A stretch of 64,000 bases of DNA from Methanothermococcus thermolithotrophicus DSM 2095 (GCF_946463545.1 NZ_OX296583.1:1432902-1496901); one strand, 5' to 3'. Positions 1 to 64,000 are shown, counted from the first letter of the stretch. Program-made: numbers and translations. The notes: a model not told the origin generated them from the letters alone.

Positions 1-1
1 A

Positions 2-481
2 TCCACACTATTAAGAAAGTTAACTGATGCAGAACCTGAAATTAACTCCTACCCATTTACAACAAAGGGGCTAAATATAGGATATACCCAGTCTGGGATC
101 CAGATAATAGATACACCAGGAGTTTTGGATAGGCCTTTGTACGAAAGAAACGACATAGAGCTAAATGCAGTTATTGCACTTAACTATTTGGCTGATATGA
201 TACTATTTGTAATAGACCCAACTGAATACTGCGGTTACACAGTCGAAGAACAACTAAATCTCTTAAATGAAGTTAAAGAAACATTTGAAGTTCCAGTTGT
301 TGTGGTAATTAACAAAATAGATATTGAAGAAAACAAAGATAAACTGGAAAGACTATCTATCCCATCAGAAGATATAGCCGAAATTATTAAAATATCCTCC
401 CAGACAGGTCAGGGATTGGATGAAGTTAATAAAGTAATCAGAAAAGTTTTAAAAGAGACTGGAAGATTGGATAGCCAATAA
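2..481 (+). CDS. NOG1-family GTP-binding protein, C-terminal part (5' end outside window)
   Basis: Frame is open from position 2. DTPG (G3) and NKID (G4) GTPase motifs are present. The ...IQIIDTPGVLDRPLYERN... stretch is typical of archaeal Nog1-like GTPases. Confidence 0.7.
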   Translation, partial: STLLRKLTDAEPEINSYPFTTKGLNIGYTQSGIQIIDTPGVLDRPLYERNDIELNAVIALNYLADMILFVIDPTEYCGYTVEEQLNLLNEVKETFEVPVVVVINKIDIEENKDKLERLSIPSEDIAEIIKISSQTGQGLDEVNKVIRKVLKETGRLDSQ

Positions 482-483
482 TA

Positions 484-1140
484 TTATTTATTTTGAATGG
501 ATTTATAGCTCTTAAATCCACCAACTAATCTTTTAACCTTAAAACCCATTAATTTTAAAATAAATGCTACAGTCTGGCTTCTCATGCCGCCTCTTGCACA
601 AAATACAACAAGTGTTTTATTTTTATCCAATTTTAGAGCTTCTTTTACTATTCTATCGATTGCTTTTGGAATTATTTCCACAGCTAAATCCATGGCTTTA
701 TCCTTACCTTCTTTTTTGTAAATTTTACTTATGGATATATGCTCATCGGTTAAAAACAGCGGGATATTCACGGCATTTGGAATTGTTTTTTCGGCATATT
801 CCTTTGGGGTCCTTGCATCCACTAAAATAAATTCATCTTCATTCATTTTTTCAAGTTCTTCAATTGTTAGGAGCTCCTCAGTTAGTTCCTTACCTATTGA
901 ATCTAAATATTTTTTAATGTCTATTGGTTCAAAATATATTAATTCACCTTGATACTCTACAGTTTTTGGAGAATTTATTTTTTTAGATTCTTTCAAAATA
1001 AATGATGCTAAATCTCCGCCTATCTTTCCAGCCAATATATTTTTACCGTTTGTTATCATTTTTTTACCGTCTTTTAAACGTATGGCTAGTACGACATTTT
1101 CCTTGAATGTTAAAAGTCTTGATAGTATTTCCTCATCCAT
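484..1140 (-). CDS. Rhodanese-domain protein, probably the rhodanese half of a split tRNA 2-selenouridine synthase (SelU/MnmH)
   Basis: The C-terminal rhodanese active-site loop VFCARGGMRSQ (CxxGxR) is present. The gene lies immediately downstream of a P-loop gene on the same strand. Confidence 0.55.
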   Translation of the reverse strand: MDEEILSRLLTFKENVVLAIRLKDGKKMITNGKNILAGKIGGDLASFILKESKKINSPKTVEYQGELIYFEPIDIKKYLDSIGKELTEELLTIEELEKMNEDEFILVDARTPKEYAEKTIPNAVNIPLFLTDEHISISKIYKKEGKDKAMDLAVEIIPKAIDRIVKEALKLDKNKTLVVFCARGGMRSQTVAFILKLMGFKVKRLVGGFKSYKSIQNK

Positions 1141-1148
1141 AATTATCC

Positions 1149-1808
1149 CTAATTCTTTAATCCATGTTTTTTTAGTTTCTCGTTAATGAAGTTATTAACT
1201 ACATCTGCTGATTCTAAGGTATTTTCATTATAAATCACCAGATCAGGCTCTATTTTTTTGATATGCCTTAAATAGTGCTGTCTGTACAGTTTTTCTTCCA
1301 CAATTACCGCAGCTTCGTAGTATTCGTCATTGTTTACAAGTTCGATAATTCTATCCAAGGCTTCAAGTGCGTCTTTCCTCCTTAAAGAGTTTTTTAATAG
1401 AATAAACTTTGATAGGAGGATTTCTTTTTCTTTCTCGTTGTTTGGTAGATAGTACTTTAGGAGCCTTTTTATTTGGCAGTGATATGGGCAATCTATTACA
1501 ATTTTGTAGTTGTAGCTTTTAATATTGGAAAAAGGCCCTGGAATGATTAGTTTTTTTGCTCCGCCTATTTTTCTTCCTTCGAATTCTGTAACGCAGTATC
1601 CTGCTTTTTTGGCTTTTTCATACTGTTTATTTAGCAGGTGATCGAATTCCTCCTGACTCCGTTGTTTTAAATTATATAAATCTCCCAAAACACTACCTCT
1701 CGTGTTTCCGCATGCTTCAATATCCACCACTGGATGAAATTTCTTTAATTCCTGTAAAATTTCCGTTTTTCCACAACCGGTCTTACCAAATAATCCAAAA
1801 ATAATCAT
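1149..1808 (-). CDS. P-loop NTPase, probably the P-loop half of a split SelU/MnmH
   Basis: Walker A GKTGCGKT is present, followed by an ...EFEGRKIGG...IIP... pattern resembling the SelU C-terminal domain. GGTGA ribosome-binding site sits 5 nt before the ATG. It is paired with the rhodanese gene. Confidence 0.5.
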   Translation of the reverse strand: MIIFGLFGKTGCGKTEILQELKKFHPVVDIEACGNTRGSVLGDLYNLKQRSQEEFDHLLNKQYEKAKKAGYCVTEFEGRKIGGAKKLIIPGPFSNIKSYNYKIVIDCPYHCQIKRLLKYYLPNNEKEKEILLSKFILLKNSLRRKDALEALDRIIELVNNDEYYEAAVIVEEKLYRQHYLRHIKKIEPDLVIYNENTLESADVVNNFINEKLKKHGLKN

Positions 1809-1810
1809 AT

Positions 1811-2034: not shown

Positions 2035-2120
2035 TTTTAGCCGGTTTTGTATTGCTATATAGTGCCAAAGTTAGTGGAATGACTAAAAAATAAGCAAAAA
2101 TAAAAAAAGCAAAATTAAAA

Positions 2121-3374
2121 TTATGTTGTATATTCTGAGTTAATTCTTACGTATTCGTAACCTAAATCACAACCATAGGATGTATTTTCTTCATTACCTA
2201 ATTTTAAATCCACTATTATTTTTATTTTCTCATTTTTCATAATTTCTTCTGCTTTTATGAGCTCCGCTGTTCCTTCGTCTGCTATCTGTTCCCCATCCTT
2301 AACAAGATAAACCTCTTCTTTAAAATCGCCAATCAAAACGTCTATTTTATTCATGTCCATCTCTGCTCCACTGTATCCCACTGCAGCTACAATTCTACCC
2401 CAGTTAGGGTCGCTACCAAATAATGCAGTTTTTACTAAGAGTGACCTAACAACTGACATAGAAGCTTTTTTTGCATCTTCTTTGGTCTTAGCCCCTCTTA
2501 CCAAGACTTCCATGAATTTTGTAGCTCCTTCTCCATCGCTTACAATCATCTTTGCGAGCTCCCTGCATACATAGGCAATGGCTTTATCAAAAGTTTCTTT
2601 ACAGTCTTTGTAGTTAACTCCACTTTCCCCATTTGCAAGAACAAAAACAGTGTCGTTTGTGCTCATATCTCCATCCACAACTGCACTATTGAAGCTCTCA
2701 TCAACTGCATTTTGTAGTGATTCTGTTAGTTCATCCCTGTTTATTTCTATATCTGTAGTTATGAAACATAACATTGTTGCATGGAGCATGTTTGGAGCTA
2801 TCATTCCAGCCCCTTTGGCTATTCCTCCGACTCTAACTTTTTTTCCGTTAACTTCAAATTCAACTGCAGTCGTTTTTGGAAATGCGTCTGTAGTCATTAT
2901 CGCTTTTGCAGAGTTTAAATTATTGTTTTCTTTGGTTAGGATATCGTATGTTTTTTTCAGTCTATCTTTTATAATATCCATTGGCATTTTTCTACCGATT
3001 ACACCCGTAGAGGCAATCAAAACCTGATTTTCAGGAATGTTTAACAATCTTGCAGTTTCTTTAATCATTTCTTTTGCATCTTCCATTCCATCCTTTGTAA
3101 AACAGTTGGCATTACCGCTGTTTGCAACAATTGCCCTTATTTTTTCATTATTTTTTAAAATTTCCTTTGACAGTTTCACAGGATGGGCATAAACCTTGTT
3201 TGTTGTAAATACACCTGCGGCAACTGCCTCTTTTTCGGATAAAATTAAAGCTACACCGTATTTATCTTCTTTAAAACCGTTTGCTTTAAATCCTTTTGGA
3301 GCTACGACTCCATTATCGATTACTTTTATCTCCAAGTCGTTCATTGTATTATTGGTTTGATTTGTTTGTCCCAT
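2121..3374 (-). CDS. argJ: Glutamate N-acetyltransferase / amino-acid acetyltransferase ArgJ
   Basis: ArgJ-like throughout, including the ATMLCFITTD autoproteolytic site region. The likely start is the ATG at 3374, preceded by GGTGG. The ORF track extends to 3413. Confidence 0.85.
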   Translation of the reverse strand: MGQTNQTNNTMNDLEIKVIDNGVVAPKGFKANGFKEDKYGVALILSEKEAVAAGVFTTNKVYAHPVKLSKEILKNNEKIRAIVANSGNANCFTKDGMEDAKEMIKETARLLNIPENQVLIASTGVIGRKMPMDIIKDRLKKTYDILTKENNNLNSAKAIMTTDAFPKTTAVEFEVNGKKVRVGGIAKGAGMIAPNMLHATMLCFITTDIEINRDELTESLQNAVDESFNSAVVDGDMSTNDTVFVLANGESGVNYKDCKETFDKAIAYVCRELAKMIVSDGEGATKFMEVLVRGAKTKEDAKKASMSVVRSLLVKTALFGSDPNWGRIVAAVGYSGAEMDMNKIDVLIGDFKEEVYLVKDGEQIADEGTAELIKAEEIMKNEKIKIIVDLKLGNEENTSYGCDLGYEYVRINSEYTT

Positions 3375-3429
3375 TTTTCCACCTGACTTTATAGTATTGA
3401 ATATAATCGCCATTTATGATATGATATTT

Positions 3430-4749
3430 TTATTTTTTGTGAAATTGCCATACTTTCAATTTTTCTATGGTAAAGTACAATGTAATGACAAATATAAAAA
3501 ATGATGATATTAAAGTTGCAGCAGCTCCTCCAACTATCCCAATGTTCTTAACCAAGATATAGTTTAAAATGGCATTTAACACCACGCCAAAGGATATAAC
3601 ATAAAGGGGCACTTTTGCATAACCAAGACCTTGCAGTGAAGCAGCACATATTGTATATGAGCCCATAAATGCAGCTGAGATTGACAGTATCTTCAAGCTT
3701 AGGGATGATTCATAATAATCTATATTGAAGAACAGTATAAGCAATTCCTTTGAAAATATGAGGAACATAAATAAAAACGGAGTTACAATTCCTAAATTCA
3801 TCAGTATGGCTTTTTTAAAGTAATTTACATCCTTTGTTTTTGCGATTCTTGGAATTAATGGTATTGATATTGAAGATGCAAATAAAAAAAGAGCTCTTGA
3901 CAGTAGTGAAGCATAACCATATAATCCGTTTAACTGTGGGCCCAATATTGACATTATAAATATACTGTCCAAATCGCTTAAAAGTCTGTATGATGCTGTT
4001 CCAAGGGCTATAGGTATCGAATAAAGTATGACTTTTTTAACCATCGGGTTTTTAACCATTAATTTAAAACTTCTTATTTTATTTTTAGGTATCAAATTAT
4101 TTTTGGCTATAAAGTAGAATCCTAAAAGTCCTCCGATAATATAACCTAAAGATATGGATAAAATACCGCCCATCACACCGATAAGTGAAGCTAAAAAGAT
4201 TGAAAATATTATTTTTGAAGTATGCTCTGCTATCCAAGTTTTAGAGAGCTCCTTTATTTTCAAGCTACCCTGCAAAACTCCTCTATTCCATGATATAAAT
4301 GCTGAAAATGGGAGGGTCAAGGCTATGATATAATAGATATTAGCATCTAAGTTTTTGTAGTATCCTCCCAAAAAATACTTTAAAAAAATGGTGAATATTC
4401 CACCAATCAATGAAAAAATCAACATTACATTTAATACTCCGTAAATCCAAGATGTTTCATTATAATGGGATTTATTGTCGTGTTTGTATTCGGAAATAAA
4501 TTTTGCCATTGCCGGGGGTATTCCAGAGCAGAAAAAAATAACCAAAGAATCTAAAATAGGTAATACTCCCCTTAAAGTTCCAAAACCCTCTGTTCCAAGT
4601 ATGTAAGCCATTAAAAAGAAAAATATGTAGGATGCACCTTTTGAATAAATATTTGAGAATATCATGTAGAAACTATCTTTCAATAGGCCTTCTTTTCTAA
4701 GGGAATTGAGAACTTTCTTTGATTTTAGATTTTTAAATTTTTTTAACAT
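3430..4749 (-). CDS. Polysaccharide biosynthesis protein / Wzx-like flippase (MOP superfamily)
   Basis: About 12-14 predicted hydrophobic helices. Composition is typical of oligosaccharide flippases. Confidence 0.65.
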   Translation of the reverse strand: MLKKFKNLKSKKVLNSLRKEGLLKDSFYMIFSNIYSKGASYIFFFLMAYILGTEGFGTLRGVLPILDSLVIFFCSGIPPAMAKFISEYKHDNKSHYNETSWIYGVLNVMLIFSLIGGIFTIFLKYFLGGYYKNLDANIYYIIALTLPFSAFISWNRGVLQGSLKIKELSKTWIAEHTSKIIFSIFLASLIGVMGGILSISLGYIIGGLLGFYFIAKNNLIPKNKIRSFKLMVKNPMVKKVILYSIPIALGTASYRLLSDLDSIFIMSILGPQLNGLYGYASLLSRALFLFASSISIPLIPRIAKTKDVNYFKKAILMNLGIVTPFLFMFLIFSKELLILFFNIDYYESSLSLKILSISAAFMGSYTICAASLQGLGYAKVPLYVISFGVVLNAILNYILVKNIGIVGGAAATLISSFFIFVITLYFTIEKLKVWQFHKK

Positions 4750-4848: not shown

Positions 4849-5844
4849 TTAAACCAGCTCTCCATTAAACGCCTTATTTAATATGGACTCTTTTAACTCT
4901 CTGAATATATTCAATTCTCTTTCCTGTAATTCTTCCAACCTTTTTATTTTCTCGGTTAAAATGTCTAAATAATTTACTATCTCCAACTGTCTTTCTAGAT
5001 TAGGTTGATTGTTTTTGTATGGGATTGGGATTGATAAATTATCAAATACTTCTTTTGAAATAGATGGAATTTCCGAGTCTATGGCATTTTCATTAGGAAT
5101 TGAAAAATAGTGTTTTATAAAATAATAAATAAACTTATTATAAAGATCGTTATTTATAGACGTTGATATTCTCCCAATATCTGAAATGAGAATATTATCT
5201 AGTTCTTCCATGCTTGTTATTTCATTTAATTTAACTAATTCCCAACCTTCTTTATCTGCTATTTCCCTAAAAATTTTATTTAAAACCGAGCTAAATAAAC
5301 CCCTTGTTTCACCTATTGATTTTTGTTTTAACTCTATTGCGTTATCCAAATCTTTAAAAAGGTACTCTATTTTGTCTATAATTTGTTTTTGTTTTTCAAG
5401 CGGGGGTAATAAAAATTCGAATGATTTTATTTCATCCCATGAGCTCTGTGGGTTCATTTCTTGCATGGTTTTGTTAACAAAATTTAAGAAACTTTCAGAG
5501 CTCATGGCAATTAAAAGATATTTTGAATAAATTTTAGCAATATCTGGAGTTAATACAAGTATATCTGTCGAACAGGCTCCATCTACATCTGACAAGACGG
5601 CCTTATTCAAATATTGGCTTGGTTTTCCATATAAAATATCTCCAGCATAAAATTTGTTTTTGCCATCCTCAACTTCCTTTGGGCTACCATAATTGGATAA
5701 ATGCCATTCATTGCTTTTAATGTGTTCCAAACCAACATAAACATTTTCATCCTTCATCTCTAAGGGGCTAATCTGCTCTTCTCGAGTATTGCATACTTCC
5801 CCCAATTTAACCCATTCCCAACCTTCTGGTATATTATATTCCAT
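4849..5844 (-). CDS. hsdS: Type I restriction-modification specificity subunit HsdS (two short target-recognition domains)
   Basis: Two EGWEW/EGWELVKL target-recognition-domain starts are present. A central conserved LPPLEKQ..I repeat and the C-terminal ...LEELQERE....LNKAFNGEL motif are present. Probable ATG is at 5844, preceded by GGTGA. No hsdM or hsdR is nearby. Confidence 0.75.
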   Translation of the reverse strand: MEYNIPEGWEWVKLGEVCNTREEQISPLEMKDENVYVGLEHIKSNEWHLSNYGSPKEVEDGKNKFYAGDILYGKPSQYLNKAVLSDVDGACSTDILVLTPDIAKIYSKYLLIAMSSESFLNFVNKTMQEMNPQSSWDEIKSFEFLLPPLEKQKQIIDKIEYLFKDLDNAIELKQKSIGETRGLFSSVLNKIFREIADKEGWELVKLNEITSMEELDNILISDIGRISTSINNDLYNKFIYYFIKHYFSIPNENAIDSEIPSISKEVFDNLSIPIPYKNNQPNLERQLEIVNYLDILTEKIKRLEELQERELNIFRELKESILNKAFNGELV

Positions 5845-6066: not shown

Positions 6067-6534
6067 TTATTCGAGCTCCTTTAAAATTTTCTCAATGATG
6101 GGTTTTAATTTTGTGAGCCCCTTTCTAATCAGTTTCCAAATTAAATTATAATCAGCATCCCAATATTGGTAAAGTAGGCTGTTTTCTATTTCTTCTAATT
6201 TTTTAAAAGGTACATTTTTATATTTTTTCTTAAATTCTTCATCAATATATTTTGACGCTTCCCCTATAATTATCAAACATTGAGATACTGCATCTTTTGT
6301 TAGTTTGTCATTTAAAAATTCTTTGTAATTCATATTTTTTGTAAATTCGATGGTGTAATTAATATTTTCTAAAATATCAGTTAAAAATACTTTATTATTT
6401 TTTTCAAATTTGTATATTAATTCGTCATCAGTTGATTTTATTAATTCTGATTTAATATTGTTTTTAAGTATTAAATTTATATTTTCATTAAATAAGTTCT
6501 CCAAATAATTTTCTAAACTTACATAATTATCCAA
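6067..6534 (-). CDS. HEPN-like protein; upstream in-frame sequence (6535-6660) encodes a truncated minimal-nucleotidyltransferase motif
   Basis: The frame stays open upstream to 6660 and encodes ...TPDIDILVEFEDE..., the nucleotidyltransferase catalytic motif. There is no start codon or GS motif. This looks like a 5'-truncated MNT-HEPN fusion next to a hairpin repeat. Confidence 0.35.
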   Translation of the reverse strand: MDNYVSLENYLENLFNENINLILKNNIKSELIKSTDDELIYKFEKNNKVFLTDILENINYTIEFTKNMNYKEFLNDKLTKDAVSQCLIIIGEASKYIDEEFKKKYKNVPFKKLEEIENSLLYQYWDADYNLIWKLIRKGLTKLKPIIEKILKELE

Positions 6535-6740: not shown

Positions 6741-6816
6741 ATGATATCCCCTCGGAGCTCCCAAAAGTATATATTATGTTAATATCGTATTAATATTATA
6801 TAAATAAAAGGTGGTG

Positions 6817-7566: not shown

Positions 7567-8313
7567 CTAAACTTGCCACTTTTTTTCAAGCAAGTTTTCC
7601 ACTGACTCTTTATGAATTCCCACTGAATATCTTTCCCCATCTAACTCTATTACTGCAAAACTTCTGGATTTTTCAGACGAATCAACCCTAATATATAAAC
7701 CTCCATAATCCATCCTTGTTAAAGTATATTCTGTAAAATGCAAATGCCCATTAAGCACAATTTTTGGTTTTATCAAATTAATGGTATCCATAATCAATTT
7801 TGAACCTTTAGATATTCTGAATTTAAAACATTCCAATTCATTAGAAGAATACACAGGCAATTCAGGAGTTTCATGACAGAGAAAAAAGTCTATTGAGTAA
7901 AGAGACGTTTGAGTTTCCTCAAGAAAATTCCTTGCCTTTATTATAAATGAATCACCCCTTTGCCTTGGCACACCCTTCTTCATTAATCTCTTTTCACTAT
8001 AAATGCCATTAACTCCACATATTTTCAAACCGCAAACTTCAACCACTTCAAAATCCTGCAAAAGCGCCGACCTACCAAGACTGGGGGCAATAATCTGAGT
8101 GAGCTCTTGCATATTCTCATGATTTCCAAAAATTGTAAGGAGGGGTATTTTCTCTAGAATTGGTTGAATAGAATTTCTTGTTAATCCTTCGTCCCAATCT
8201 CCTGCTGATAGGAGTAAATCTGGCCGGGTTTCTATTATGATTTGATTTAACCATTCAAATTGAGCATTTTCTATCATAGTAGTATGCAAATCACTAATAA
8301 ATAGAATTCTCAT
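7567..8313 (-). CDS. Calcineurin-like metallophosphoesterase
   Basis: DLH, GDW.E, GNHE and GHLH metal-ligand motifs are present. Confidence 0.7.
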   Translation of the reverse strand: MRILFISDLHTTMIENAQFEWLNQIIIETRPDLLLSAGDWDEGLTRNSIQPILEKIPLLTIFGNHENMQELTQIIAPSLGRSALLQDFEVVEVCGLKICGVNGIYSEKRLMKKGVPRQRGDSFIIKARNFLEETQTSLYSIDFFLCHETPELPVYSSNELECFKFRISKGSKLIMDTINLIKPKIVLNGHLHFTEYTLTRMDYGGLYIRVDSSEKSRSFAVIELDGERYSVGIHKESVENLLEKKWQV

Positions 8314-8514: not shown

Positions 8515-9949
8515 TCCAAAAAAAGGACATAAATCAACTTAAAAGTATAAAAATACCACTATAAATTACAAAGGCATAATCCCATCCAATTCAATACAAA
8601 ATAATGACCGATTTCTTTTTTTAATTTATTATCCACCGTAATCATTACTACACTGTTATCCATCATCCACAAACTTACTATTCCCTATTACCGGACCTGG
8701 AGGTTATTGCCCAACACCACCAAAAGGAGCTCTCTCACTAGCATATACTTATTAAGAGAACTAGGCACACTTGATCCAAATAGTCTGTTTTATTTAAAAT
8801 ATATTATTTTTTCTTTTAGAAGTGAATAAAAGTATTTAAAAAACATGCCTCCGTAATATTACAAAGGCATATATTCAATAAGGTTAACATTGGCATATAT
8901 TGTGTGAATGGAAAAGTAGAGAATAATATAAGTTTTTCTGATTTTTTCTAATAATTGGCGTTAAATGCGCCTCTGGTTAAGTTTCTTATGTTGGATGTTA
9001 TGTTTAAAAAACTTAAGATATGAGTAAAAATAAAATACAAGGAAGTAAATATTTACAACTTAAGTCTATATCTATCCTTTAATAGGTATTGAAAATGTTA
9101 GGTACCTTCGGATGTATGAACATGCGCCATATTTATTATATATTTCATCAAGTTTTTCATTGATTTGTTCATTTTTTCGCTTAGCAATTCATGGTTGGTG
9201 CTAACATCCTCTGCAAGAGATTTCTTTTAAGTTTTTTCATTAATTTTACATCTTTAAATTTATTTACCAAAAATTCAGACCAATCATGCTCCTTGCAAGC
9301 ATATATAAACAACTCATCCCTAACGAAGAACCTATACCTGTTTTAAAATCTTATCTTCAAATTAGTGGATAAAAAATAGAATACAGCGCTAAAAATCTAT
9401 GATACTACTGAGTCCTATTAAAATAGTTAGATAATGCCTTATAGATTAAGTTAGTCATCAAAACGAAGGGCCAAGGCTGGTTTTTACTAAAATTAAGATT
9501 ATTAACATATTTCAGATGTATGAACATGCGCCACATCATATGGTGTTAAATACACTTAAATTTCTTATAAATTGCGCTATTTAGTATTTATTGGACAATT
9601 GATTATATTGTGCCTTTGTAATATATTACAAGGGCATATACTAGTTCTGGATACTGTATAGAAAAAACTATTCGATGCTAATGATAGGTTAAAAATGAAG
9701 ATACGAAAACTTATAAAACTTTAAGCAATTTAAACTTATATACTGATGAAGAAGAGAAAAATGAAAAATTATTTAAAAGATTAAAAAAAGAAAATTAATA
9801 ATTTCCTACTTTGCTTTTTATGGGGGATATAATGGGGAATATTATGGTTTTAGAACTAATGAATTAATTGAACAAGAAGAAATAGACGAAATACATGTTT
9901 CTGGATTGTTATGGAAATTTAGATTACATATATAAAAATTTGGCAATTG

Positions 9950-20345: not shown

Positions 20346-21986
<1,641 letters not shown>

Positions 21987-54194: not shown

Positions 54195-55028
54195 TTATTC
54201 TGGTTTTTCCATTAACTCTTTTTTACTTAATATTTGTCCTTCTGGATGGTGTGGTTTTCTACTTACACCATCTGTTGATTTTTCTAACTCTCTTGCTTCA
54301 TCCACTAATTTAGCAGCATATCTTATCATTTCATGGGCAGATGCTACAATTGGGATGTATTTTTCCATCTCTTTTGTCATGAAGCATCCTTTAACGTCAA
54401 CATCTCCAACTTTTTCAGCCATAACAAATGCGGCCATTGCCTTTGCCTTTGCGTAAGGGTTGGTAAATTCCATAGCTTCAACAGCTTTTTGCTCGTTGAT
54501 AACTATTTTTGGTAATTCAATTTCTTTTTCTTCCTTAACAGCATTAATCATTTCATCAATCGCATTTTGTACAACCCTTAGAGCTCCGGTACCTGCCAAC
54601 ACTCTTATTACATCTGCGTTAAACATTGCCATTTCAACAGGGTCTAAAAATTGTCTTCTTGCACCAATCATTGGGTCGCATTTTATAATGATATACCCCA
54701 GCCCTTGTTCAGCAATTTCGTCCTTTGCCTTTAAACCTGGAGCATCACCGATAATTACTGCAGGAATATCTGAGCTACTTAAAATTTCTCTTGCTTTTTT
54801 TGGACCTGGTGCAGCTGGGTTTGGTCCTATGTAAACTATAAAATCTGGTTTTACTTCATTTACCATTTTTGTAGTTACTTCTTCCACTTGCTCTGGCCCC
54901 ATCTTTGCCCCACTGCTTAAAACTATAACATCTATATCTTTTCTATCTGCCCTCTCATCCAATGCTAAGTCCACAATTGGAGACATCCCGATATTCCCAC
55001 ACTTGATAATTCCTACTTTCACAACCAT
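54195..55028 (-). CDS. mtd: F420-dependent methylenetetrahydromethanopterin dehydrogenase
   Basis: Near-full-length match to Mtd (VVKVGIIKCGNIG...GPNPAAPGP...). ATG at 55028 is preceded by GGTGA. Confidence 0.9.
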   Translation of the reverse strand: MVVKVGIIKCGNIGMSPIVDLALDERADRKDIDVIVLSSGAKMGPEQVEEVTTKMVNEVKPDFIVYIGPNPAAPGPKKAREILSSSDIPAVIIGDAPGLKAKDEIAEQGLGYIIIKCDPMIGARRQFLDPVEMAMFNADVIRVLAGTGALRVVQNAIDEMINAVKEEKEIELPKIVINEQKAVEAMEFTNPYAKAKAMAAFVMAEKVGDVDVKGCFMTKEMEKYIPIVASAHEMIRYAAKLVDEARELEKSTDGVSRKPHHPEGQILSKKELMEKPE

Positions 55029-55133: not shown

Positions 55134-56273
55134 CTATTCAAAATCGAACAACGGTGGCATTTTGTCATCAACCCCCGGCACATAATCAAAAGTATCTCTA
55201 AGTTTTAACTGCATTCTGTGGAATATATGTACAAGTGGAATTTCCATTGGACAGACGCCCTCACACTGTCCGCAGTTTATGCAACTTTGGGAAATATGGG
55301 ACAATCTAATCCCTTGGAACATTATTGGGTTTGGTGGGATTTTGCCTTTCTCATCAACATAGTCCTTCTCCAATTTACACTCCTCACAGAAACAGATTGG
55401 GCATACGTCTCTGCATCCATAACATTTAATACACCTATTCCAATATTCTTTCCATCTTTCAATATTTGGATATTCCTCTTCAAGTTGTTTCTTTTGGAAA
55501 CTTTTAGCGAGTTTAATCATGTTGTTTTCTATTTTTTCCCTAATTTCAATGCCTTTCTCAGATGGTTTTTTGGTTTTTATGTATCCCTCTTTTTCAGCAT
55601 CCTCAATGAGCTCCATTCCTTTCTCTGAACAAATCTCAACAAACGTCCATCCTGAGTCTGCCCCCCAATTCCCACATGCTAAATCCGCATTTCTCGGGAC
55701 TTTTAATTCACATCTTTGACAATTCTCCCTCCTTCCGAAGCCTTTTTCTTCCAACTCATGGATTTTTATTGCCTTATGTTCCCCATTCTTCAACTCAATG
55801 ATGAATTTTCCTTTATCAATTTCCTCCTTTACAACGTCCTTGGGATTTACTCCATAAAATAGTTCAATCATCTTCATTGCAGTTATTGGACTTATGGTCC
55901 CTCCACAGTTCAAACCAATCATATAAACATTATCCAAGTTAATTTGGTTTAACTTTGCTAATTCCCTTATTGCCATGGCATCACAAGGTTTAACAGAAAC
56001 GGCAATCTTTTTATCTGCTAAGTAGTTCTTTATCAAATTTCCAAAGTTCGTTGGAGCACAGTGCAGAGAACCTGCAGTTTCAATCAATTCTTCTGAGCTC
56101 GTTATGAACGCTGGGATTCCATCATAAATATCCTCCCCCCTCTTTAATGCCAAGACTCCATCAACAAGTTTTTTATCCAATAAATATTTAGACAGTGCGG
56201 TAACTGCCCCCCCACATTCTGCCTGTTTTAAGATTTCTTCATCAGTAGCTTGAATTAAAATGTATTTATCCAT
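55134..56273 (-). CDS. fdhB: F420-dependent formate dehydrogenase beta-subunit-like protein (FrhB/FdhB family)
   Basis: FrhB-like N-domain plus C-terminal 2x CxxCxxCxxxCP. Start MDKYILIQ at 56273 is preceded by GGTGG. Confidence 0.8.
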   Translation of the reverse strand: MDKYILIQATDEEILKQAECGGAVTALSKYLLDKKLVDGVLALKRGEDIYDGIPAFITSSEELIETAGSLHCAPTNFGNLIKNYLADKKIAVSVKPCDAMAIRELAKLNQINLDNVYMIGLNCGGTISPITAMKMIELFYGVNPKDVVKEEIDKGKFIIELKNGEHKAIKIHELEEKGFGRRENCQRCELKVPRNADLACGNWGADSGWTFVEICSEKGMELIEDAEKEGYIKTKKPSEKGIEIREKIENNMIKLAKSFQKKQLEEEYPNIERWKEYWNRCIKCYGCRDVCPICFCEECKLEKDYVDEKGKIPPNPIMFQGIRLSHISQSCINCGQCEGVCPMEIPLVHIFHRMQLKLRDTFDYVPGVDDKMPPLFDFE

Positions 56274-58677: not shown

Positions 58678-59601
58678 TTGAAGATTAAACCAGAATGTGC
58701 AATATGTATTACAAGACAGGTTGTTGATGCTGCAAGAGAGATAACCGACGATGAAAGAGAACAACTTATGTTAATAAAATCCTGTTTAAATAAAATAGAA
58801 GAAGAATATCATGAAGATGCAGTTCCTGCATGGATGGGAACCGCAGTCCACAGATATTTAAAAAATATAAGCAAAAATGAAGACCCGTACCGTAAGTTAA
58901 AGGATTCTGCAAATAAACTTGCTCTTAAATACTTGGATAAGATCATGGAAAAAGTTGATATTGAGGATGACTTGGAAAGGTTAAAAATGAAAGTATTGGT
59001 AAGTATTGCAGGTAATGTAATTGACTTTGGACCATACAGTACAGGTATCGATATTGAAGAGAAAATAAAAAGTACACTTGAAGGTGAATTAAAGATAGAT
59101 CACAGTAAAGAGCTCTTAGAAGATTTGAAGAAATCAAAAAAAGTCTTTTATATTACTGATAACGCCGGGGAAATAGTTTTTGATAAACCGTTAATTGAAG
59201 AGATAAAAAAATACTGCGACGTAGTTATAGCAGTTAAAGGAAAGCCTATTTTAAACGATGCTACTTTAGAAGATGCCAAAGTTGCCGGATTGGATAAAGT
59301 AGCTAAAGTTATAACAAGTGGTACTGACGTCATAGGTACAAGATTTGAAGAATGTTCAGAAGAATTTTTAAAAGAATTTGAGAGCTCAGATATAGTCATA
59401 GCAAAAGGTATGGGTAACTATGAAAGTTTGACCGAGTACGAAGGTAAAATTAAACAACCAATATACTACATATTCAAGGCAAAATGTAGGCCAATTGCTG
59501 ATAGTCTTAAAAACCTTAAGTATTTAAAATCTTCTTCACTGAGCTCCAAAGATGTTGATGTGGACGACAACATACTTTTAAAGGGCAATGTATATTTATA
59601 A
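58678..59601 (+). CDS. DUF89/ARMT1-like metal-dependent phosphatase family protein
   Basis: CAICITRQ N-terminus and an ITDNAGEIVFD motif. TTG start with GGTGA ribosome-binding site. Confidence 0.65.
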   Translation: MKIKPECAICITRQVVDAAREITDDEREQLMLIKSCLNKIEEEYHEDAVPAWMGTAVHRYLKNISKNEDPYRKLKDSANKLALKYLDKIMEKVDIEDDLERLKMKVLVSIAGNVIDFGPYSTGIDIEEKIKSTLEGELKIDHSKELLEDLKKSKKVFYITDNAGEIVFDKPLIEEIKKYCDVVIAVKGKPILNDATLEDAKVAGLDKVAKVITSGTDVIGTRFEECSEEFLKEFESSDIVIAKGMGNYESLTEYEGKIKQPIYYIFKAKCRPIADSLKNLKYLKSSSLSSKDVDVDDNILLKGNVYL

Positions 59602-59683: not shown

Positions 59684-60733
59684 TTGGTAACATACAAAGA
59701 CGCTGGTGTTGATATTTACAAGGAAGACAGAGTTATAAAAGCACTTATGTCCCAGATAAAGTTCCAGAGAACTGACGACATAAAACCTGCAGCAGATTTA
59801 AAAGGACATTATGCAGGAGCCATTGAATTTGGTGATTATTATTTAGTTTTATGTACCGATGGAGTAGGAAGTAAGATGATAGTGGCTGAAATGGCCAATA
59901 AATTTGATACTGTACCTATAGACATGATAGCAATGAATGTAAACGATGCCATTTGTATTGGGGCAGAACCTGTAGCACTTGTTGACTATATGGCTGTTGA
60001 AGATATAAACGAAGAAATAGCTGAGCAGATAGGTAGAGGTTTAGAAAGAGGAATAAGAGAATCCAATATAAATCTAATAGGCGGAGAAACTGCATCCCTT
60101 CCAAGCATGATTAAAGGAATTGATATTGCAGGTACTGTTTTAGCCATTGTAAAAAAGGACGAAATAGTAACTGGAGAAAAGGTAAAAAAAGGAGATGTAA
60201 TTGTAGGACTTAGAAGTAGCGGAATACACAGCAATGGATTATCCCTTGCAAGAAAGGTATTCTTTGAAATTGCAGGTATGGATATAAACACCGAGCTCTC
60301 CCATGGGAAAACTGTAGGTGAGGAGCTCCTAACTCCAACAAGAATTTATGTTAAACCTGTTTTAGAAATGATAAAAAAATTGGAAGTTAAAGGATTGGCT
60401 CACGTTACTGGAGGAGGATTTAGAAAATTAAAAAGATTGAACAAGAATGTATGCTATTTAATTGATAATCTTCCAGAAATTCCACCAGTATTCAAAGAGA
60501 TACAAAGGCTGGGCAATATTTCAGATGAAGAAATGTTCAAAACCTTTAACATGGGTATTGGTTTCTGCGTAATTGTGGATAAAGAAGATGCAGAAAAAGT
60601 CATTGAGATTTCAAACCAGTACAATATACCTGCCTTTGTTATTGGAAGAATTGAAGACCAGTACGATGGAGAAAAAATTACAGACGGTAAAGTTGTAGTT
60701 AAATACAAAGGCAAAGAAATGATAATGGAATAA
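59684..60733 (+). CDS. purM: Phosphoribosylformylglycinamidine cyclo-ligase (AIR synthetase)
   Basis: N-terminal YKDAGVDI and a PurM fold throughout. GGTGG ribosome-binding site. Confidence 0.9.
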   Translation: MVTYKDAGVDIYKEDRVIKALMSQIKFQRTDDIKPAADLKGHYAGAIEFGDYYLVLCTDGVGSKMIVAEMANKFDTVPIDMIAMNVNDAICIGAEPVALVDYMAVEDINEEIAEQIGRGLERGIRESNINLIGGETASLPSMIKGIDIAGTVLAIVKKDEIVTGEKVKKGDVIVGLRSSGIHSNGLSLARKVFFEIAGMDINTELSHGKTVGEELLTPTRIYVKPVLEMIKKLEVKGLAHVTGGGFRKLKRLNKNVCYLIDNLPEIPPVFKEIQRLGNISDEEMFKTFNMGIGFCVIVDKEDAEKVIEISNQYNIPAFVIGRIEDQYDGEKITDGKVVVKYKGKEMIME

Positions 60734-60755: not shown

Positions 60756-62426
60756 ATGCCAACAATAAACGTAAATAAAGCGGATCTTGAGAGATTAGTA
60801 AATATGTCATTATCGGATAGACTTATTGAAGATAAGTTTCCTATGATGGGCGTAGAGGTAGAGGACATATTTGAAGAGGAAGGGAATAAAATTGTTCAAT
60901 TTTCTATAAACCCAAACAGGCCAGATTATTTAAGTGTCGAAGGTCTTGCAAGGGGATTCAGAGGTTTCATGGGAATAGATACTGGTTTACCAAGGTATGA
61001 CGTATATGATTCTGACGTTGAGATCTTTGTTGAAGAAAACAAAACAAGACCATACATAGCATTTGCAATAGTTAAAAATGTTTTAATCGATGATGCTGTT
61101 TTAGAAAGTATCATTAACCTTCAAGAGAAGTTGCACTGGGCTATTGGAAGGGATAGAAAAAAACTTGCCATAGGGATACACGACTTTGACAAGGTTGAGG
61201 CCCCATTCTATTACAAGGAGATCAAAGGGGACGAATTAAAATTTGTTCCATTAGGGTATGAGGAAGAAATGACTCCTGAAGAGATATTGGAGAAACATGA
61301 GAAAGGAATAAAATATGCACACTTAATAAAAGACGATAGATATCCAATCATACTTGACAAGAATGGAAATGTCCTTTCAATGCCGCCAATAATAAACGGA
61401 AATCTAACAAAGGTCACTACCGAAACAAGAAACCTGTTAATTGATGTTACAGGTACAGAAAAAGAGGCTGTTGAAAATACATTAAACATCATAGTTACAG
61501 CTCTTGCAGAAAGAAGGGGAACAATATTTTCTGTAAAGATGAATTATATAAACAATAAATCAGAACCAGTCAAGTATCCAAATCTAAACCCTGAAATTAA
61601 AGAAGTCTCTCCTGAATTTATAAATAAAAAACTTGGATTGAATCTAAATATTGGAGAGATTATCAGCGCCTTTAAAAAAGCCAGACTGGATGCAAAGTTT
61701 GAAAATGGTAACATAAAAGTTGCAGTTCCAGCATACAGGGTTGATATGCTACATGAAGTCGATTTTGCTGAAGAAGTTGCCATAAACTATGGATATGAGA
61801 AATTTGCTGGAAAATTCCCTAAAGTTGCTACAATTGGGGAAAAGAACCCACTTGAAAAGAAATGCGACAACATAAGAAATATAATGACTGGACTTGGATT
61901 TTATGAAGTCATGAACTTGACATTATCCAACCAGGACATACTATTTAAAAACATGAGAATTGAAGTCGATGAAAATGAATACGTAGAAGTTTTAAAACCT
62001 GCATCAATAGAACATAGGGTTGTAAGGAGCTCAGTGATGCCTTTACTTTTAGAAACTTTGTTGATAAACAAACACAACGAGCTCCCTCAAAAAATATTCG
62101 AAGTTGGAGACTGTGTTATAATTGATGAAAATGAATCATCTGAAACAAAGTGTAAGAATATTAAGAAGGTGGCTTCAGCTGTTACACACCCAACAGCAAA
62201 CTTCAACGAGATAAAAAGCTACACAGAAGCGCTTTTAAGGGAGATAGGGATTGAATACGAGTTAGAGAACTACGAACATCCTTCATTCATAACCGGAAGA
62301 TGTGCTAAAATCGTAAATGTAAGTGATGGTAGAGTAGTAGGTTACTTTGGGGAACTACATCCTGAGGTCATTTTAAACTTTGGATTGGAGCATCCAGTTG
62401 TTGCATTTGAGATAGAAATAGAATAA
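60756..62426 (+). CDS. pheT: Phenylalanine--tRNA ligase beta subunit (archaeal type)
   Basis: 556 aa. Begins MPTINVNKADLERL with a B3/B4 domain pattern. Conserved C-terminal catalytic-like domain. Confidence 0.9.
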   Translation: MPTINVNKADLERLVNMSLSDRLIEDKFPMMGVEVEDIFEEEGNKIVQFSINPNRPDYLSVEGLARGFRGFMGIDTGLPRYDVYDSDVEIFVEENKTRPYIAFAIVKNVLIDDAVLESIINLQEKLHWAIGRDRKKLAIGIHDFDKVEAPFYYKEIKGDELKFVPLGYEEEMTPEEILEKHEKGIKYAHLIKDDRYPIILDKNGNVLSMPPIINGNLTKVTTETRNLLIDVTGTEKEAVENTLNIIVTALAERRGTIFSVKMNYINNKSEPVKYPNLNPEIKEVSPEFINKKLGLNLNIGEIISAFKKARLDAKFENGNIKVAVPAYRVDMLHEVDFAEEVAINYGYEKFAGKFPKVATIGEKNPLEKKCDNIRNIMTGLGFYEVMNLTLSNQDILFKNMRIEVDENEYVEVLKPASIEHRVVRSSVMPLLLETLLINKHNELPQKIFEVGDCVIIDENESSETKCKNIKKVASAVTHPTANFNEIKSYTEALLREIGIEYELENYEHPSFITGRCAKIVNVSDGRVVGYFGELHPEVILNFGLEHPVVAFEIEIE

Positions 62427-62816
62427 TAGTTTATTTTTTTAAATTTTTTATCTATCTTTAATAGTCTTCATTATTTTTTAATTTTATTTGTTTATTGTTT
62501 TTATTTTTCAAATACAAGCATAGATTACCAATCTCGAACCGATCACGTTTTATGATTGTTGTATATATTTAGATTTAATAATTTATAAAGATATTGTTTA
62601 GTCATGGTGTTAGAGACGGTTTTATCATGTTTTCCTTACAAATATTGTTTATTTTTTTGTTTATGCAACTGCATGTTCTTTATTTTAGAAAATAAAACCA
62701 ATTATCAAGTCGCACGTCTTTATATATGGAGCTCCAGATCATAGGTTCGAGATAAAAAGTTTTAAATAATGGAAGATACAACCTTCTTTATAGGGAAATA
62801 AGGAAAATTCTTAACT

Positions 62817-63054
62817 GTTAAAATCAGACCATTGTGGGATGGAAATCTTTTTGTGTTCTCTCATTTAGTTCTTCCTTAGATTTTTTACGTTAAAATCAGA
62901 CCATTGTGGGATGGAAATGAAATAAAATCTGACATTTTTTTTACCTCCTTTATTTGTTAAAATAAGACCATTGTGGGATGGAAATTTTGCAGTCGATAAA
63001 TGTAATGGTGAAAGGGGAATTTCTGTTAAAATCAGACCATAGTAGGAAAATAGA
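62817..63054 (+). CRISPR. Mini CRISPR array with 4 repeats (3 spacers), repeat GTTAAAATCAGACCATTGTGGGATGGAAAT
   Basis: Repeats at 62817-46, 62889-918, 62956-85 (1 mismatch) and 63025-54 (degenerate terminal). Spacers are 42, 37 and 39 nt. An AT-rich leader lies at 62430-62816. No cas genes are in the window. Confidence 0.8.
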
Positions 63055-63060
63055 AATATA

Positions 63061-63232
63061 CCTACTCAACGAAGTTGAGTAGGTATCAGATTTGGGGATC
63101 CAACACCTCTCGACGAAAACCTGAAAGGTTTTCGTGAGTCTCGACAAAAATTCAAAGAATTTTTGTGAGTCAGCGAATCCTTTGGATTCGCTTCGACAGC
63201 AAATCGAAGATTTGCTTCGATTTATAAAGGGG
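63061..63232. repeat. Multi-hairpin repeat element immediately 3' of the CRISPR array
   Basis: CCTACTCAACgaaGTTGAGTAGG, CGAAAACCTgaaAGGTTTTCG, ACAAAAATTCaaaGAATTTTTGT, GCGAATCCtttGGATTCGC and GCAAATCgaaGATTTGC, separated by TCGAC/GTGAGTC flanks. Confidence 0.7.
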
Positions 63233-64000
63233 TTGGAAATAAATGTCTTGTAGCAAATTCTTTTGCCCAGTATGTTATTATAAAGTCTGCTCCGGCTCGC
63301 TTAATGCTTAAAAGAGTTTCATAAATTGTGGCATCCCTATCAAGCCAGCCTTTTTCAGCTGCAGCTTCCACCATTGAATACTCTCCACTTACGCAATAGC
63401 CCCCAATTGGCACGTTGAAGTTATCTTTAGCCATTTTTAATATATCCAAATATGGAAGTGCAGGTTTGACAAGTATTAAATCAGCACCTTCTTCTATGTC
63501 CAACTCAATTTCTCTTAAGGCTTCCTTTGAATTTCCGGGATCCATCTGATAGGTTTTTCTATCTCCAAATTTAGGGGCACTTTCTGCAGCATCCCTAAAA
63601 GGACCATAAAATGCAGAAGAATACTTTGCCGCGTAGCTCATTATGGCAACATTTTTGTGGCCGTTTTCTTCTAAAACTTCCCTAATTTTTCTAACTCTTC
63701 CATCCATCATGTCAGAAGGAGCCACTATATCGGCACCACTTTCAGCATAGGATAATGCTATCTTACCTAAGATTTCAAGGGTTTCATCGTTTAAAATTTC
63801 ATTATCTTTAACTATACCACAATGTCCATGAGAAGTATATTCGCACATACAAACATCAGCTATAACTAAAAGTTCATCCCCAAGTTCTTCCTTTATTTTT
63901 GAAATTGCCTTTTGAACTCCGCCATTCATATCGTAGGCTGAAGAGGCTACTTCGTCTTTGTATTTCGGAATTCCAAATAAAATAACGGCAGGAATTCCTA
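63222..64000 (-). CDS. hemB: Porphobilinogen synthase (delta-aminolevulinate dehydratase), partial; N-terminus beyond window end
   Basis: The frame stays open to position 64000 (...[31 protein letters not shown]...). Conserved HemB C-terminal half. Confidence 0.85.

Follow-up and report, generated by a model that had tools for sequence, protein, structure and literature searches.

GAGCTC is a hyper-abundant palindromic word in Methanothermococcus thermolithotrophicus and a group of related Methanococcaceae

The stretch of DNA analysed here, called the window throughout, comprises 64,000 nt of Methanothermococcus thermolithotrophicus DSM 2095 (30.8% GC). It encodes the methanogen markers Mtd, FdhA and FdhB (formate dehydrogenase), and the Mtd sequence shares 90% identity with its counterpart in Methanothermococcus sp. 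Ax23 and 77-86% with the counterparts in other Methanococcales. Throughout the window the palindrome GAGCTC recurs about once per kb. We report that GAGCTC is a genomic word of the highly iterated palindrome (HIP) type, neither a repeat nor a by-product of coding nor an artefact, in M. thermolithotrophicus and a group of its relatives among the Methanococcaceae.

Results

Exact matching finds 71 copies of GAGCTC in the window, against 4.28 expected from base composition (16.6-fold). A first-pass annotation of the same DNA had put the count at about 75, the excess at about 15-fold and the expectation at 4-5 sites. Excess and expectation agree with our values, the exact count is lower, and the example sites it listed are real, each lying at most 13 nt from the coordinate given; the Methanococcales origin that it presumed is right as well. 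When hexamers are counted exactly against Markov nulls, a check set beforehand, GAGCTC ranks first among all 4096 hexamers at orders 0, 1, 2, 3 and 4 (z-scores 45, 47, 39, 20 and 4.9, respectively), and its observed/expected ratio, far from 1, is still 4.7 at order 3. Equal enrichment of other palindromes, named in advance as the outcome that would speak against the claim, is not seen: no other palindromic hexamer in the window exceeds 3-fold, the runner-up being CTGCAG at 3.0. Neighbours one mismatch away, described as scarce, are at or below chance. The octamer GGAGCTCC occurs 11 times where 0.10 are expected; its rarity by chance (fewer than 0.2) had been judged correctly, its number (at least 12) slightly too high.

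Alignment of the 71 sites shows G at -1 / C at +1 in 35%, against a background of 15%, and an information content of about 0 beyond +/-1. Hexamer abundance and the preference for G at -1 thus fully explain the excess of GGAGCTCC in the window. The flanks of all 71 sites are unique which, with no information past +/-1, indicates that GAGCTC is not a dispersed repeat element. Repeats of the repetitive extragenic palindrome (REP) or miniature inverted-repeat transposable element (MITE) type, having a longer unit and a mainly intergenic location, were rejected on the same flank profile and on the 86% of sites that lie within open reading frames (ORFs). Spacing in the window and in the enriched loci described below fits a Poisson process (coefficient of variation of gaps 0.87-1.00 against 0.94-0.98 simulated, pooled P=0.43) and gives no evidence of regularity, with gaps of up to 3.5 kb and pairs just 21-30 bp apart. 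Site position along genes is uniform (Kolmogorov-Smirnov P=0.07), the window shows no enrichment near start codons, and no association with promoters or terminators was found.

The pressure acts on the DNA and not on the peptide. ORFs hold 61 of the 71 sites, distributed over phases 0/1/2 as 37/9/15; synonymous-codon shuffling within each gene (500 shuffles) leaves 3.2/0.84/1.4, all three phases being enriched 11-12-fold over this null. The shuffled in-gene total is 5.4 +/- 2.2, with a maximum of 15 in the 500 shuffles. Non-coding DNA (11.4 kb, 18% of the window) carries the other 10 sites where 0.41 are expected, about 25-fold, so that coding and non-coding densities are proportionate. Among relatives, the loci L087, L089 and L093 likewise show sites spread over the phases, 10-13-fold above the shuffled expectation. 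Phase-0 Glu-Leu accounts for 52% of the sites in the window. The two codons, GAG and CTC, are both minor, and of the 101 CTC codons in the window 37 fall within GAGCTC. Glu-Leu is written GAG-CTC in 37 of 181 dipeptides (20%), against 2.7 expected, while the frequency of the dipeptide itself is not raised (observed/expected 1.22, against 1.24 in relatives without GAGCTC enrichment). GAGCTC has therefore been fitted in through silent codon choice, without reshaping the proteins. As a control for the phase test, the CTGCAG/TGGCCA excesses of Methanobacteriaceae (6-12-fold) fall nearly all in one codon phase, and about half of each is explained by codon usage. In detail, these Methanobacteriaceae loci (L013-L038) carry CTGCAG, and in some TGGCCA, nearly always in codon phase 1 (xCT-GCA-Gxx or xTG-GCC-Axx), and both words are still 2-3-fold over the synonymous-shuffle null. 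The shuffle test, the Glu-Leu codon analysis and this control bear out two claims of the first-pass annotation, that sites occupy all codon phases as well as intergenic DNA and that the pressure is on the DNA.

Its claims about local gaps fared less well. The intein at 23613-25184 is indeed free of GAGCTC, but only 1.8 sites are expected there at the local rate and the deficit is not significant (P=0.17). The island at 8.5-19.1 kb, described as sparse with about 6 sites, holds 7 against 12.7 expected locally (P=0.06) and is still 11-fold above chance. Recent acquisition without amelioration, proposed for both segments, is not shown by these insignificant deficits, by an island enriched 11-fold, or by the plasmid of a relative, which is as enriched as the chromosome of its host.

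Relatives were sampled as 7-21 kb around mtd per species. Controls outside the Methanococcales were loci from a scan of genome contigs by Mtd alignment, mostly of Methanobacteriales together with other archaea, among the matches listed. GAGCTC proved to be enriched in some Methanococcales and not in others. In 20.8 kb each, Methanothermococcus sp. Ax23 has 28 sites and M. okinawensis IH1 has 23; a metagenome contig whose Mtd is that of Ax23 has 12 in 10.4 kb. In Methanococcus aeolicus there are 28 in 20.8 kb (strain Nankai-3) and 27 in 20.8 kb (strain PL15/Hp, locus L094), and two more M. aeolicus-like assemblies have 20 in 17.3 kb and 13 in 11.8 kb. A Methanothermococcus metagenome-assembled genome (MAG), GCA_027074775.1 (L091), stands at half density, with 8 in 14.2 kb. 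M. thermolithotrophicus, Ax23, M. okinawensis and two M. aeolicus strains carry 1.1-1.3 sites per kb; over the enriched loci and the M. okinawensis plasmid pMETOK01 the range is 0.9-1.3 per kb. The enrichment at about 1 per kb is 18-21-fold in Ax23, M. okinawensis and pMETOK01, with the same range of enrichment in L087, L089 and L093. Pooled, the enriched lineages have 163 GAGCTC against 8.8 expected in 141 kb.

The mtd loci of M. voltae (1 site), Methanofervidicoccus abyssi (3), Methanocaldococcus indicus (3) and Methanotorris formicicus (0) are not enriched; pooled, M. voltae, Methanofervidicoccus, Methanotorris and Methanocaldococcus give 7 sites against 6.9 expected in 95 kb. No site is present in 6.5 kb of a Methanococcus sp. 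MAG, nor in 12 kb and 7.8 kb of the SCGC AD-155 lineage, whose Mtd is Methanofervidicoccus-like. Some 75 control loci of Methanobacteriales, Archaeoglobi, Bathyarchaeia and others show no GAGCTC enrichment of this kind. GC-rich Bathyarchaeia loci reach 3-5-fold, which we tentatively attribute to the preferred codons of Glu-Leu at about 60% GC. Taken together, GAGCTC is a genuine, DNA-level, lineage-restricted, hyper-abundant palindrome.

M. aeolicus uses a dialect of the word. There, 20 of 28 hexamers form the full GGAGCTCC, against 0.03 expected (about 650-fold); G stands at -1 in 86%, and all 28 have at least one outer G/C. At 0.96 per kb, GGAGCTCC is about as dense in M. aeolicus as the bare hexamer is in Methanothermococcus, where it stands at 1.1-1.3 per kb. 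Extrapolating from 20 copies in 20.8 kb, the PL15/Hp genome would hold some 1,600 copies.

The M. okinawensis plasmid pMETOK01 (NC_015632, 14.9 kb, 26.8% GC; locus L100) has 13 GAGCTC against 0.65 expected, and its density of 0.87 per kb is near that of the host chromosome. As the plasmid is as enriched as its host, the acting force reaches all resident DNA in these cells. Within it, GAGCTC abuts the ATG start codon of both large genes (5118-5126 and 9584-9592, AGGTGAGCTCATG twice); about 5 kb on the integrase side (45-5117) has no site and the other 7.5 kb has 12.

Sites are conserved between close relatives. Between Ax23 and M. okinawensis (14 orthologous genes, 86% nucleotide identity), 14 of 18 sites lie at the same position, where the control rate is 44% over all hexamers and 29% over those of equal G+C. 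Where the amino acids are identical, 13 of 14 sites are kept, against 55% of control hexamers (P=0.003), and in the reverse direction 13 of 13 are kept (P=0.0004). Such conservation above controls with amino acids held constant indicates that the silent positions inside GAGCTC are protected. With M. aeolicus (75% identity) only 4 of 16 sites are shared, not above control, and thus sites turn over at that distance. Differences between aligned orthologous sites are single substitutions, not indels. The MAG GCA_027074775.1 (93% nucleotide identity to Ax23 in orthologues) shares 5 of 9 Ax23 sites across 9 orthologues, has lost the other 4 by single transitions and has no sites of its own, a conservation no better than control. 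It is possibly a lineage in which maintenance has lapsed through natural loss of the maintaining factor.

The near-cognate hexamers also carry a signal. Depletion is clear for the silent one-off forms GAACTC/GAGTTC, at 0.44 of the expected number where unenriched relatives have 1.14 (P=0.001), and GAGCTT/AAGCTC follow at 0.66, against 1.07 (P=0.065); one-off neighbours of equal or higher G+C show no depletion. Since these two pairs are the commonest silent precursors one transition away, their depletion points to a directional flux of point substitutions into GAGCTC. This fits sites arising singly by point substitution from near-cognate hexamers, mostly silently (e.g. Glu-Leu GAA-CTC to GAG-CTC).

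Published methylomes bear on the role of modification. In M. aeolicus PL15/Hp, SMRT (single-molecule real-time) sequencing found N4-methylcytosine (m4C) at CTAG and N6-methyladenine (m6A) at GTNAC, GCACY and CGAG, to which a predicted 5-methylcytosine (m5C) enzyme for ACGT is added (Fomenkov et al. 2023, PMC10113651); all five methyltransferase genes found are assigned to motifs other than GAGCTC (PMC10113651). This strain, whose genome the study also closed, is the very one that carries GAGCTC at full density. SMRT does detect m4C at GAGCTC where an enzyme exists, as for the bacterial M.AspJHL3I, and bacteria have GAGCTC-specific methyltransferases of the m4C and the predicted m5C kind (PMC4752239 supplement). 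The methylome survey of Blow et al. 2016 includes no Methanococcales. We regard m6A and m4C at GAGCTC as effectively excluded in M. aeolicus; m5C may still occur, but it is without a candidate enzyme. Two genes of the window, the Type IIG methyltransferase of the defence island and a solitary HsdS (see below), were rejected as cognate enzymes: they are strain- or element-specific, and M. aeolicus is enriched without either. The Type IIG and HsdS families recognise asymmetric or bipartite sites.

The individual sites are listed in Table 1. Three of them fall within 134 bp at 45505-45638, in the intergenic DNA between convergent genes.

Table 1. Exact GAGCTC matches in the window; the palindrome is unstranded, and the ORF (with strand) and codon phase are given for each site
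Feature	Position	Location	Codon phase
GAGCTC, full 8-mer GGAGCTCC	871..876	ORF 484-1140(-)	0
GAGCTC	2259..2264	ORF 2121-3413(-)	0
GAGCTC	2556..2561	ORF 2121-3413(-)	0
GAGCTC	3891..3896	ORF 3430-4749(-)	1
GAGCTC	4246..4251	ORF 3430-4749(-)	0
GAGCTC	5441..5446	ORF 4849-5856(-)	2
GAGCTC	5498..5503	ORF 4849-5856(-)	2
GAGCTC	6073..6078	ORF 6067-6534(-)	0
GAGCTC, full 8-mer GGAGCTCC	6755..6760	intergenic	
GAGCTC	8101..8106	ORF 7567-8313(-)	0
GAGCTC	8727..8732	intergenic	
GAGCTC, full 8-mer GGAGCTCC	12268..12273	ORF 10337-13540(+)	2
GAGCTC	13881..13886	ORF 13542-15143(+)	0
GAGCTC	15573..15578	ORF 15225-16046(+)	0
GAGCTC	15843..15848	ORF 15225-16046(+)	0
GAGCTC	17348..17353	ORF 16052-19048(+)	0
GAGCTC	17438..17443	ORF 16052-19048(+)	0
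GAGCTC	19462..19467	ORF 19348-20280(-)	0
GAGCTC	19753..19758	ORF 19348-20280(-)	0
GAGCTC	19789..19794	ORF 19348-20280(-)	0
GAGCTC	20961..20966	ORF 20346-21953(-)	0
GAGCTC	21570..21575	ORF 20346-21953(-)	0
GAGCTC	23064..23069	ORF 22503-26261(-)	0
GAGCTC	25310..25315	ORF 22503-26261(-)	1
GAGCTC	26285..26290	intergenic	
GAGCTC	26967..26972	ORF 26756-27397(+)	1
GAGCTC	28467..28472	ORF 27875-28645(+)	1
GAGCTC	29749..29754	ORF 29347-30315(+)	0
GAGCTC	30343..30348	ORF 30316-31200(-)	0
GAGCTC	30957..30962	ORF 30316-31200(-)	1
GAGCTC	32763..32768	intergenic	
GAGCTC	32944..32949	ORF 32788-33456(-)	0
GAGCTC	34768..34773	ORF 34585-36210(+)	0
GAGCTC	35107..35112	ORF 34585-36210(+)	0
GAGCTC, full 8-mer GGAGCTCC	35275..35280	ORF 34585-36210(+)	0
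GAGCTC	36622..36627	ORF 36256-36897(+)	0
GAGCTC	37186..37191	ORF 37069-37704(+)	0
GAGCTC	37236..37241	ORF 37069-37704(+)	2
GAGCTC	37530..37535	ORF 37069-37704(+)	2
GAGCTC	37775..37780	ORF 37756-38976(+)	1
GAGCTC, full 8-mer GGAGCTCC	38401..38406	ORF 37756-38976(+)	0
GAGCTC	38867..38872	ORF 37756-38976(+)	1
GAGCTC	41527..41532	ORF 40555-41775(+)	0
GAGCTC	43132..43137	ORF 43027-44070(+)	0
GAGCTC	45274..45279	ORF 44540-45430(+)	2
GAGCTC	45505..45510	intergenic	
GAGCTC	45566..45571	intergenic	
GAGCTC	45633..45638	intergenic	
GAGCTC	47230..47235	ORF 46829-47299(+)	2
GAGCTC	47638..47643	intergenic	
GAGCTC	48360..48365	ORF 48132-49652(+)	0
GAGCTC, full 8-mer GGAGCTCC	49235..49240	ORF 48132-49652(+)	2
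GAGCTC, full 8-mer GGAGCTCC	49327..49332	ORF 48132-49652(+)	1
GAGCTC, full 8-mer GGAGCTCC	50750..50755	ORF 49726-50862(-)	2
GAGCTC	52396..52401	ORF 51997-52614(+)	0
GAGCTC	52522..52527	ORF 51997-52614(+)	0
GAGCTC	52585..52590	ORF 51997-52614(+)	0
GAGCTC, full 8-mer GGAGCTCC	53115..53120	ORF 52639-53328(+)	2
GAGCTC	53484..53489	intergenic	
GAGCTC	53767..53772	ORF 53762-54049(+)	2
GAGCTC	54581..54586	ORF 54195-55046(-)	1
GAGCTC	55608..55613	ORF 55134-56396(-)	0
GAGCTC	56095..56100	ORF 55134-56396(-)	2
GAGCTC	59110..59115	ORF 58678-59601(+)	0
GAGCTC	59382..59387	ORF 58678-59601(+)	2
GAGCTC	59541..59546	ORF 58678-59601(+)	2
GAGCTC	60293..60298	ORF 59684-60733(+)	0
GAGCTC, full 8-mer GGAGCTCC	60323..60328	ORF 59684-60733(+)	0
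GAGCTC	62027..62032	ORF 60756-62426(+)	2
GAGCTC	62079..62084	ORF 60756-62426(+)	0
GAGCTC, full 8-mer GGAGCTCC	62729..62734	intergenic	

Discussion

GAGCTC is, by the definition developed for HIP1 (GCGATCGC) of cyanobacteria (PMC4390886, PMC5861425), a highly iterated palindrome, now in an archaeon. It is a perfect palindrome enriched at least 15-fold, present in all frames and in non-coding DNA, spread by substitution, conserved between genomes and found about once per kb. HIP1 and the alternate palindromes of cyanobacteria are likewise short and perfect, 15-300-fold or more over-represented at about 1 per kb, present in all frames and in non-coding DNA, and known in lineage variants. Their sites stand in place without indels, consistent with spread by substitution and not by insertion, and, at a density of about 1 per kb, HIP1 is better conserved from genome to genome than control words are (PMC4390886, PMC5861425). 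One-off forms of HIP1 deviate mainly at the outer positions, a likeness to M. aeolicus, whose hexamers all keep an outer G/C. Here, however, the host is archaeal, the core is AGCT instead of GATC, the genome is AT-rich (30% GC) and the word is mostly the bare hexamer. HIP1 is also defined partly by two cognate methyltransferases, whereas the M. aeolicus methylome has neither m6A nor m4C at GAGCTC and no spare methyltransferase. For HIP1 a periodicity of 10-90 kb is reported; at the scale of our 64-kb window, nearest-neighbour spacing of GAGCTC is Poisson.

What is new is apparently a HIP-type word that is archaeal, has another sequence, is mostly a hexamer and goes without cognate methylation. 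In the full-text literature, which leaves most subscription journals outside and an earlier mention there possible, we found no report of this word, whether as GAGCTC, as GGAGCTCC or among uptake sequences and over-represented palindromes or octamers of Methanococcales; HIP1 papers, palindrome surveys and a review of archaeal restriction-modification do not mention the word. To our knowledge, no hyper-abundant word of this kind is known in Archaea.

Other known words resemble GAGCTC in part. The uptake signal sequences (USS) of Pasteurellaceae and the DNA uptake sequences (DUS) of Neisseriaceae also occur about once per kb, lie in genes in any frame through silent or tolerated changes, are common to related species with dialects and are present on resident plasmids; in bacteria they are built by molecular drive and not by insertion. 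They differ in being 9-12 nt long, non-palindromic and often arranged as inverted pairs at terminators, while GAGCTC is a palindrome of 6-8 nt with no terminator association and its one-off forms are depleted, not enriched. Chi and the FtsK-orienting polar sequences (KOPS) are likewise short, over-represented words of the core genome read by DNA-processing machinery. They are asymmetric, strand-skewed with replication and modestly enriched, whereas GAGCTC is its own reverse complement and has no orientation. Targets of SacI-type restriction-modification share the identical sequence; such targets are normally avoided in their hosts, yet here it is the most over-represented word, and no such system is reported in these archaea.

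As the most likely mechanism we hypothesize, tentatively, an exchange- or recombination-linked molecular drive acting through a putative reader. The two-fold symmetric GAGCTC would be read by a lineage-specific factor, probably a dimeric protein, and reading would favour the transmission of DNA that carries the word, an advantage that levels off at about one word per kb. This advantage would most likely operate during DNA exchange or recombination, either between cells or between the many genome copies. Such a process would amount to a molecular drive like the one behind the uptake sequences of bacteria, a drive now proposed for HIP1 of cyanobacteria as well; in contrast to HIP1, the process here would apparently not depend on m6A or m4C methylation of GAGCTC. 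A dimeric reader is suggested by the two-fold symmetry of the word. The equal density of 6-mer and 8-mer points to a saturating process more than to a fixed per-site mutational bias, which would have to differ 40-fold in strength. The absence of m6A and m4C from GAGCTC in the motif-rich M. aeolicus argues against the methylation-coupled models favoured for HIP1, while plasmid enrichment and random spacing argue against a purely architectural role. We prefer exchange-linked drive through this elimination of rivals and by analogy with USS/DUS and with HIP1, which is reported in the recent literature to enhance natural transformation. The broader class of genome-wide protein-binding or uptake-like signals, raised by the first-pass annotation, is still the leading one.

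One may go further and see in GAGCTC/GGAGCTCC the first archaeal 'self-DNA' word, a methylation-independent uptake or recombination tag whose putative dimeric reader would be confined to the Methanothermococcus and M. aeolicus lineages. We consider this bolder version somewhat unlikely. If true, the tag would bias which DNA is taken up or retained in exchange between cells or genome copies, and would be an independent archaeal invention of the role held in bacteria by USS/DUS and, as now argued, by HIP1. We know of no uptake bias or receptor in any archaeon. Natural transformation does exist in Methanococcus maripaludis (PMC10133366).

Several points weigh against exchange-linked drive. Natural transformation is documented only for M. 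maripaludis and not for the enriched species, and two lineages of the same genus, M. voltae and the Methanococcus sp. MAG, show no enrichment even though their congener is naturally transformable. The reader protein is putative. The hexamer discriminates self from foreign AT-rich DNA only about 16-fold, and its Poisson spacing offers no hint that even coverage is selected for. Depletion is clearest in the neighbour that a C-to-T change of the central cytosine produces, and a repair bias for cytosine deamination would give the same. The methylome negative covers m6A and m4C only. The sample is 7-20 kb per species. Finally, a single-gene neighbour-joining tree of Mtd gives no monophyly of the enriched taxa; it also fails to recover accepted genera (Methanotorris pairs with the window species) and so does not separate one origin followed by losses from multiple gains, and we make no claim of monophyly.

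Of the rival explanations, the one that survives best is a by-product of methylation-coupled repair, either Vsr-like very-short-patch (VSP) repair or the HIP 'ratchet' of Elhai. An m5C methyltransferase would mark GAGCTC and a T:G-specific enzyme would restore C, near-cognates being ratcheted into the word. GAGCTC is a Type II-like palindrome (the SacI site) for which bacteria have m4C and predicted m5C enzymes, HIP1 is tied to methyltransferases at the same density of about 1 per kb, and the only clearly depleted neighbour, GAGTTC/GAACTC, is the deamination product of the central C. In Methanobacteriales, a plasmid-borne T:G glycosylase, Mig.MthI, is linked to an m5C system. We nevertheless judge this explanation unlikely. 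The sole m5C enzyme found in M. aeolicus PL15/Hp has ACGT as its assigned motif, with no methyltransferase left over, and GAACTC, as the commonest silent precursor, would be depleted under any directional force. Known VSP footprints, such as that of Dcm/Vsr in E. coli (CCWGG over- and CTWGG under-represented), share with GAGCTC a methylase-type palindrome and the scarcity of the C-to-T one-off, but they are modest, under about 3-fold, against 17-650-fold here, and no cognate methylation or Vsr-like gene is reported. The proposal of a methylation or VSP by-product is thus weakened by the M. aeolicus methylome for m6A and m4C and retained in its m5C version.

Biased mismatch correction or gene conversion might also act cell-autonomously and independently of methylation. 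A nuclease or glycosylase would favour GAGCTC in heteroduplexes, the bias would be amplified among polyploid genome copies, and the word would be functionless. It would account for an effect on every replicon, including a 15-kb plasmid at 26.8% GC, for random spacing with no positional preference in genes, for the depletion of AT-richer one-off neighbours and for the retention of sites at silent positions. It is, in our view, rather unlikely: the equal density of about 1 per kb for 6-mer and 8-mer would need bias strengths differing about 40-fold by coincidence, and freely convertible Glu-Leu dipeptides are only 20% converted. We know of no mismatch enzyme that favours GAGCTC.

Quite improbable is a binding site for an abundant nucleoid, chromosome-architecture or segregation protein, with each site under ordinary purifying selection. 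A symmetric word would suit a dimer, positions are conserved between species, specificity shifts between lineages, and a structural role has already been proposed for HIP1; but the sites are Poisson-spaced, with long gaps as well as very close pairs, the small plasmid is equally dense, coding and non-coding DNA carry sites in proportion, promoters and terminators show no association, and sister genera do without GAGCTC.

That codon or dipeptide preference (Glu-Leu, Gly-Ala-x, x-Ser-Ser) makes the word has next to no chance, for although about half of the sites read as Glu-Leu, the shuffle and phase test, the intergenic excess and the use of two minor codons refute it, related genomes with the same proteins are not enriched, and true coding palindromes are phase-locked, as in Methanobacteriaceae. 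An engineered watermark, cloning-site contamination or assembly artefact, which the identity of GAGCTC with the SacI cloning site might suggest and the first-pass annotation had listed, is refuted with the same near-certainty by the recurrence of the same sites in independent assemblies of M. thermolithotrophicus (identity 99.9-100% across 9-22 kb, a 541-aa protein of the window being encoded identically in the DSM 2095 draft GCA_000376965.1, AQXV01), by enrichment at the same density in four further wild species or strains, in metagenome and Logan assemblies and on a natural plasmid, and by sites that lie in frame within conserved genes and recur between species.

Hyper-abundant words such as Chi, USS/DUS and HIP1 have each pointed to a DNA-handling machine. 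GAGCTC makes it testable whether HIP-type words need methylation at all and whether methanogen DNA exchange or recombinational repair has a sequence-specific step. The contrasts in density, with Ax23 enriched, GCA_027074775.1 apparently losing the word, and Methanofervidicoccus and M. voltae unenriched, offer a ready comparative screen for the reader gene. In these genomes the word can also serve as a sharp marker, both in binning and in the detection of foreign DNA, and SacI should cut the enriched ones every ~0.9 kb unless GAGCTC is modified.

Other features of the window

A defence island occupies 10337-19048. It opens with a fusion of an HKD/PLD nuclease and an SNF2 helicase (1067 aa; PADLOC 'HKD+Snf2', DrmD-like), followed by a Type IIG restriction-methyltransferase with Eco57I and TaqI_C domains, split into three ORFs (13542-15143, 15225-16046 and 16052-19048). 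The first two of these both match the N-terminal ~200-250 residues of one Type IIG profile, and thus the endonuclease-side module is duplicated; they share a near-identical stretch, gcattttaYRGYgatGAGCTCgaYgactggcggttt, around the GAGCTC sites at 13881 and 15573. The plasmid pMETOK01 encodes a homologous helicase and methyltransferase pair (L100 5124-8597 and 9590-12637, 27% identity each). A search for viruses and mobile elements by means of the island helicase returned one viral contig of 47% GC, unrelated to these hosts, and the window has no tRNA genes as provirus anchors. Upstream, at 4849-5856(-), is the solitary Type I specificity gene HsdS, with no HsdM or HsdR nearby, adjoining a HepT-like ribonuclease toxin gene at 6067-6534(-).

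The intein interrupts a 1252-aa Hel308-type helicase (22503-26261(-); DEAD/ResIII and Helicase_dom4_arc domains) and contains a LAGLIDADG homing-endonuclease domain (Pfam). A co-oriented cluster at 33951-45430(+) comprises three proteins (541, 213 and 211 aa) that match nothing in Pfam, an AAA ATPase resembling Vps4, beta-propeller/PEGA proteins whose fusions or frameshifts vary from strain to strain, two Ser/Thr protein kinases, a membrane protein of the DUF4013 family and a PP2C phosphatase. Its make-up suggests a signalling or 'dark matter' module. About 1.2 kb from the intergenic site cluster at 45505-45638, a stand-alone ORF of 156 aa (46829-47299(+)) encodes a PD-(D/E)XK nuclease domain of RecB/AddA/Cas4 type, beside the gene of an HFX_2341-like winged-helix protein (45724-46458). 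This ORF was rejected as a reader candidate, its domain being generically AddA/Cas4-like and no evidence linking it to GAGCTC. Further downstream, at 49726-50862(-), lies a 378-aa protein with no Pfam match and two FxLYD domains (NCBIfam NF038353).

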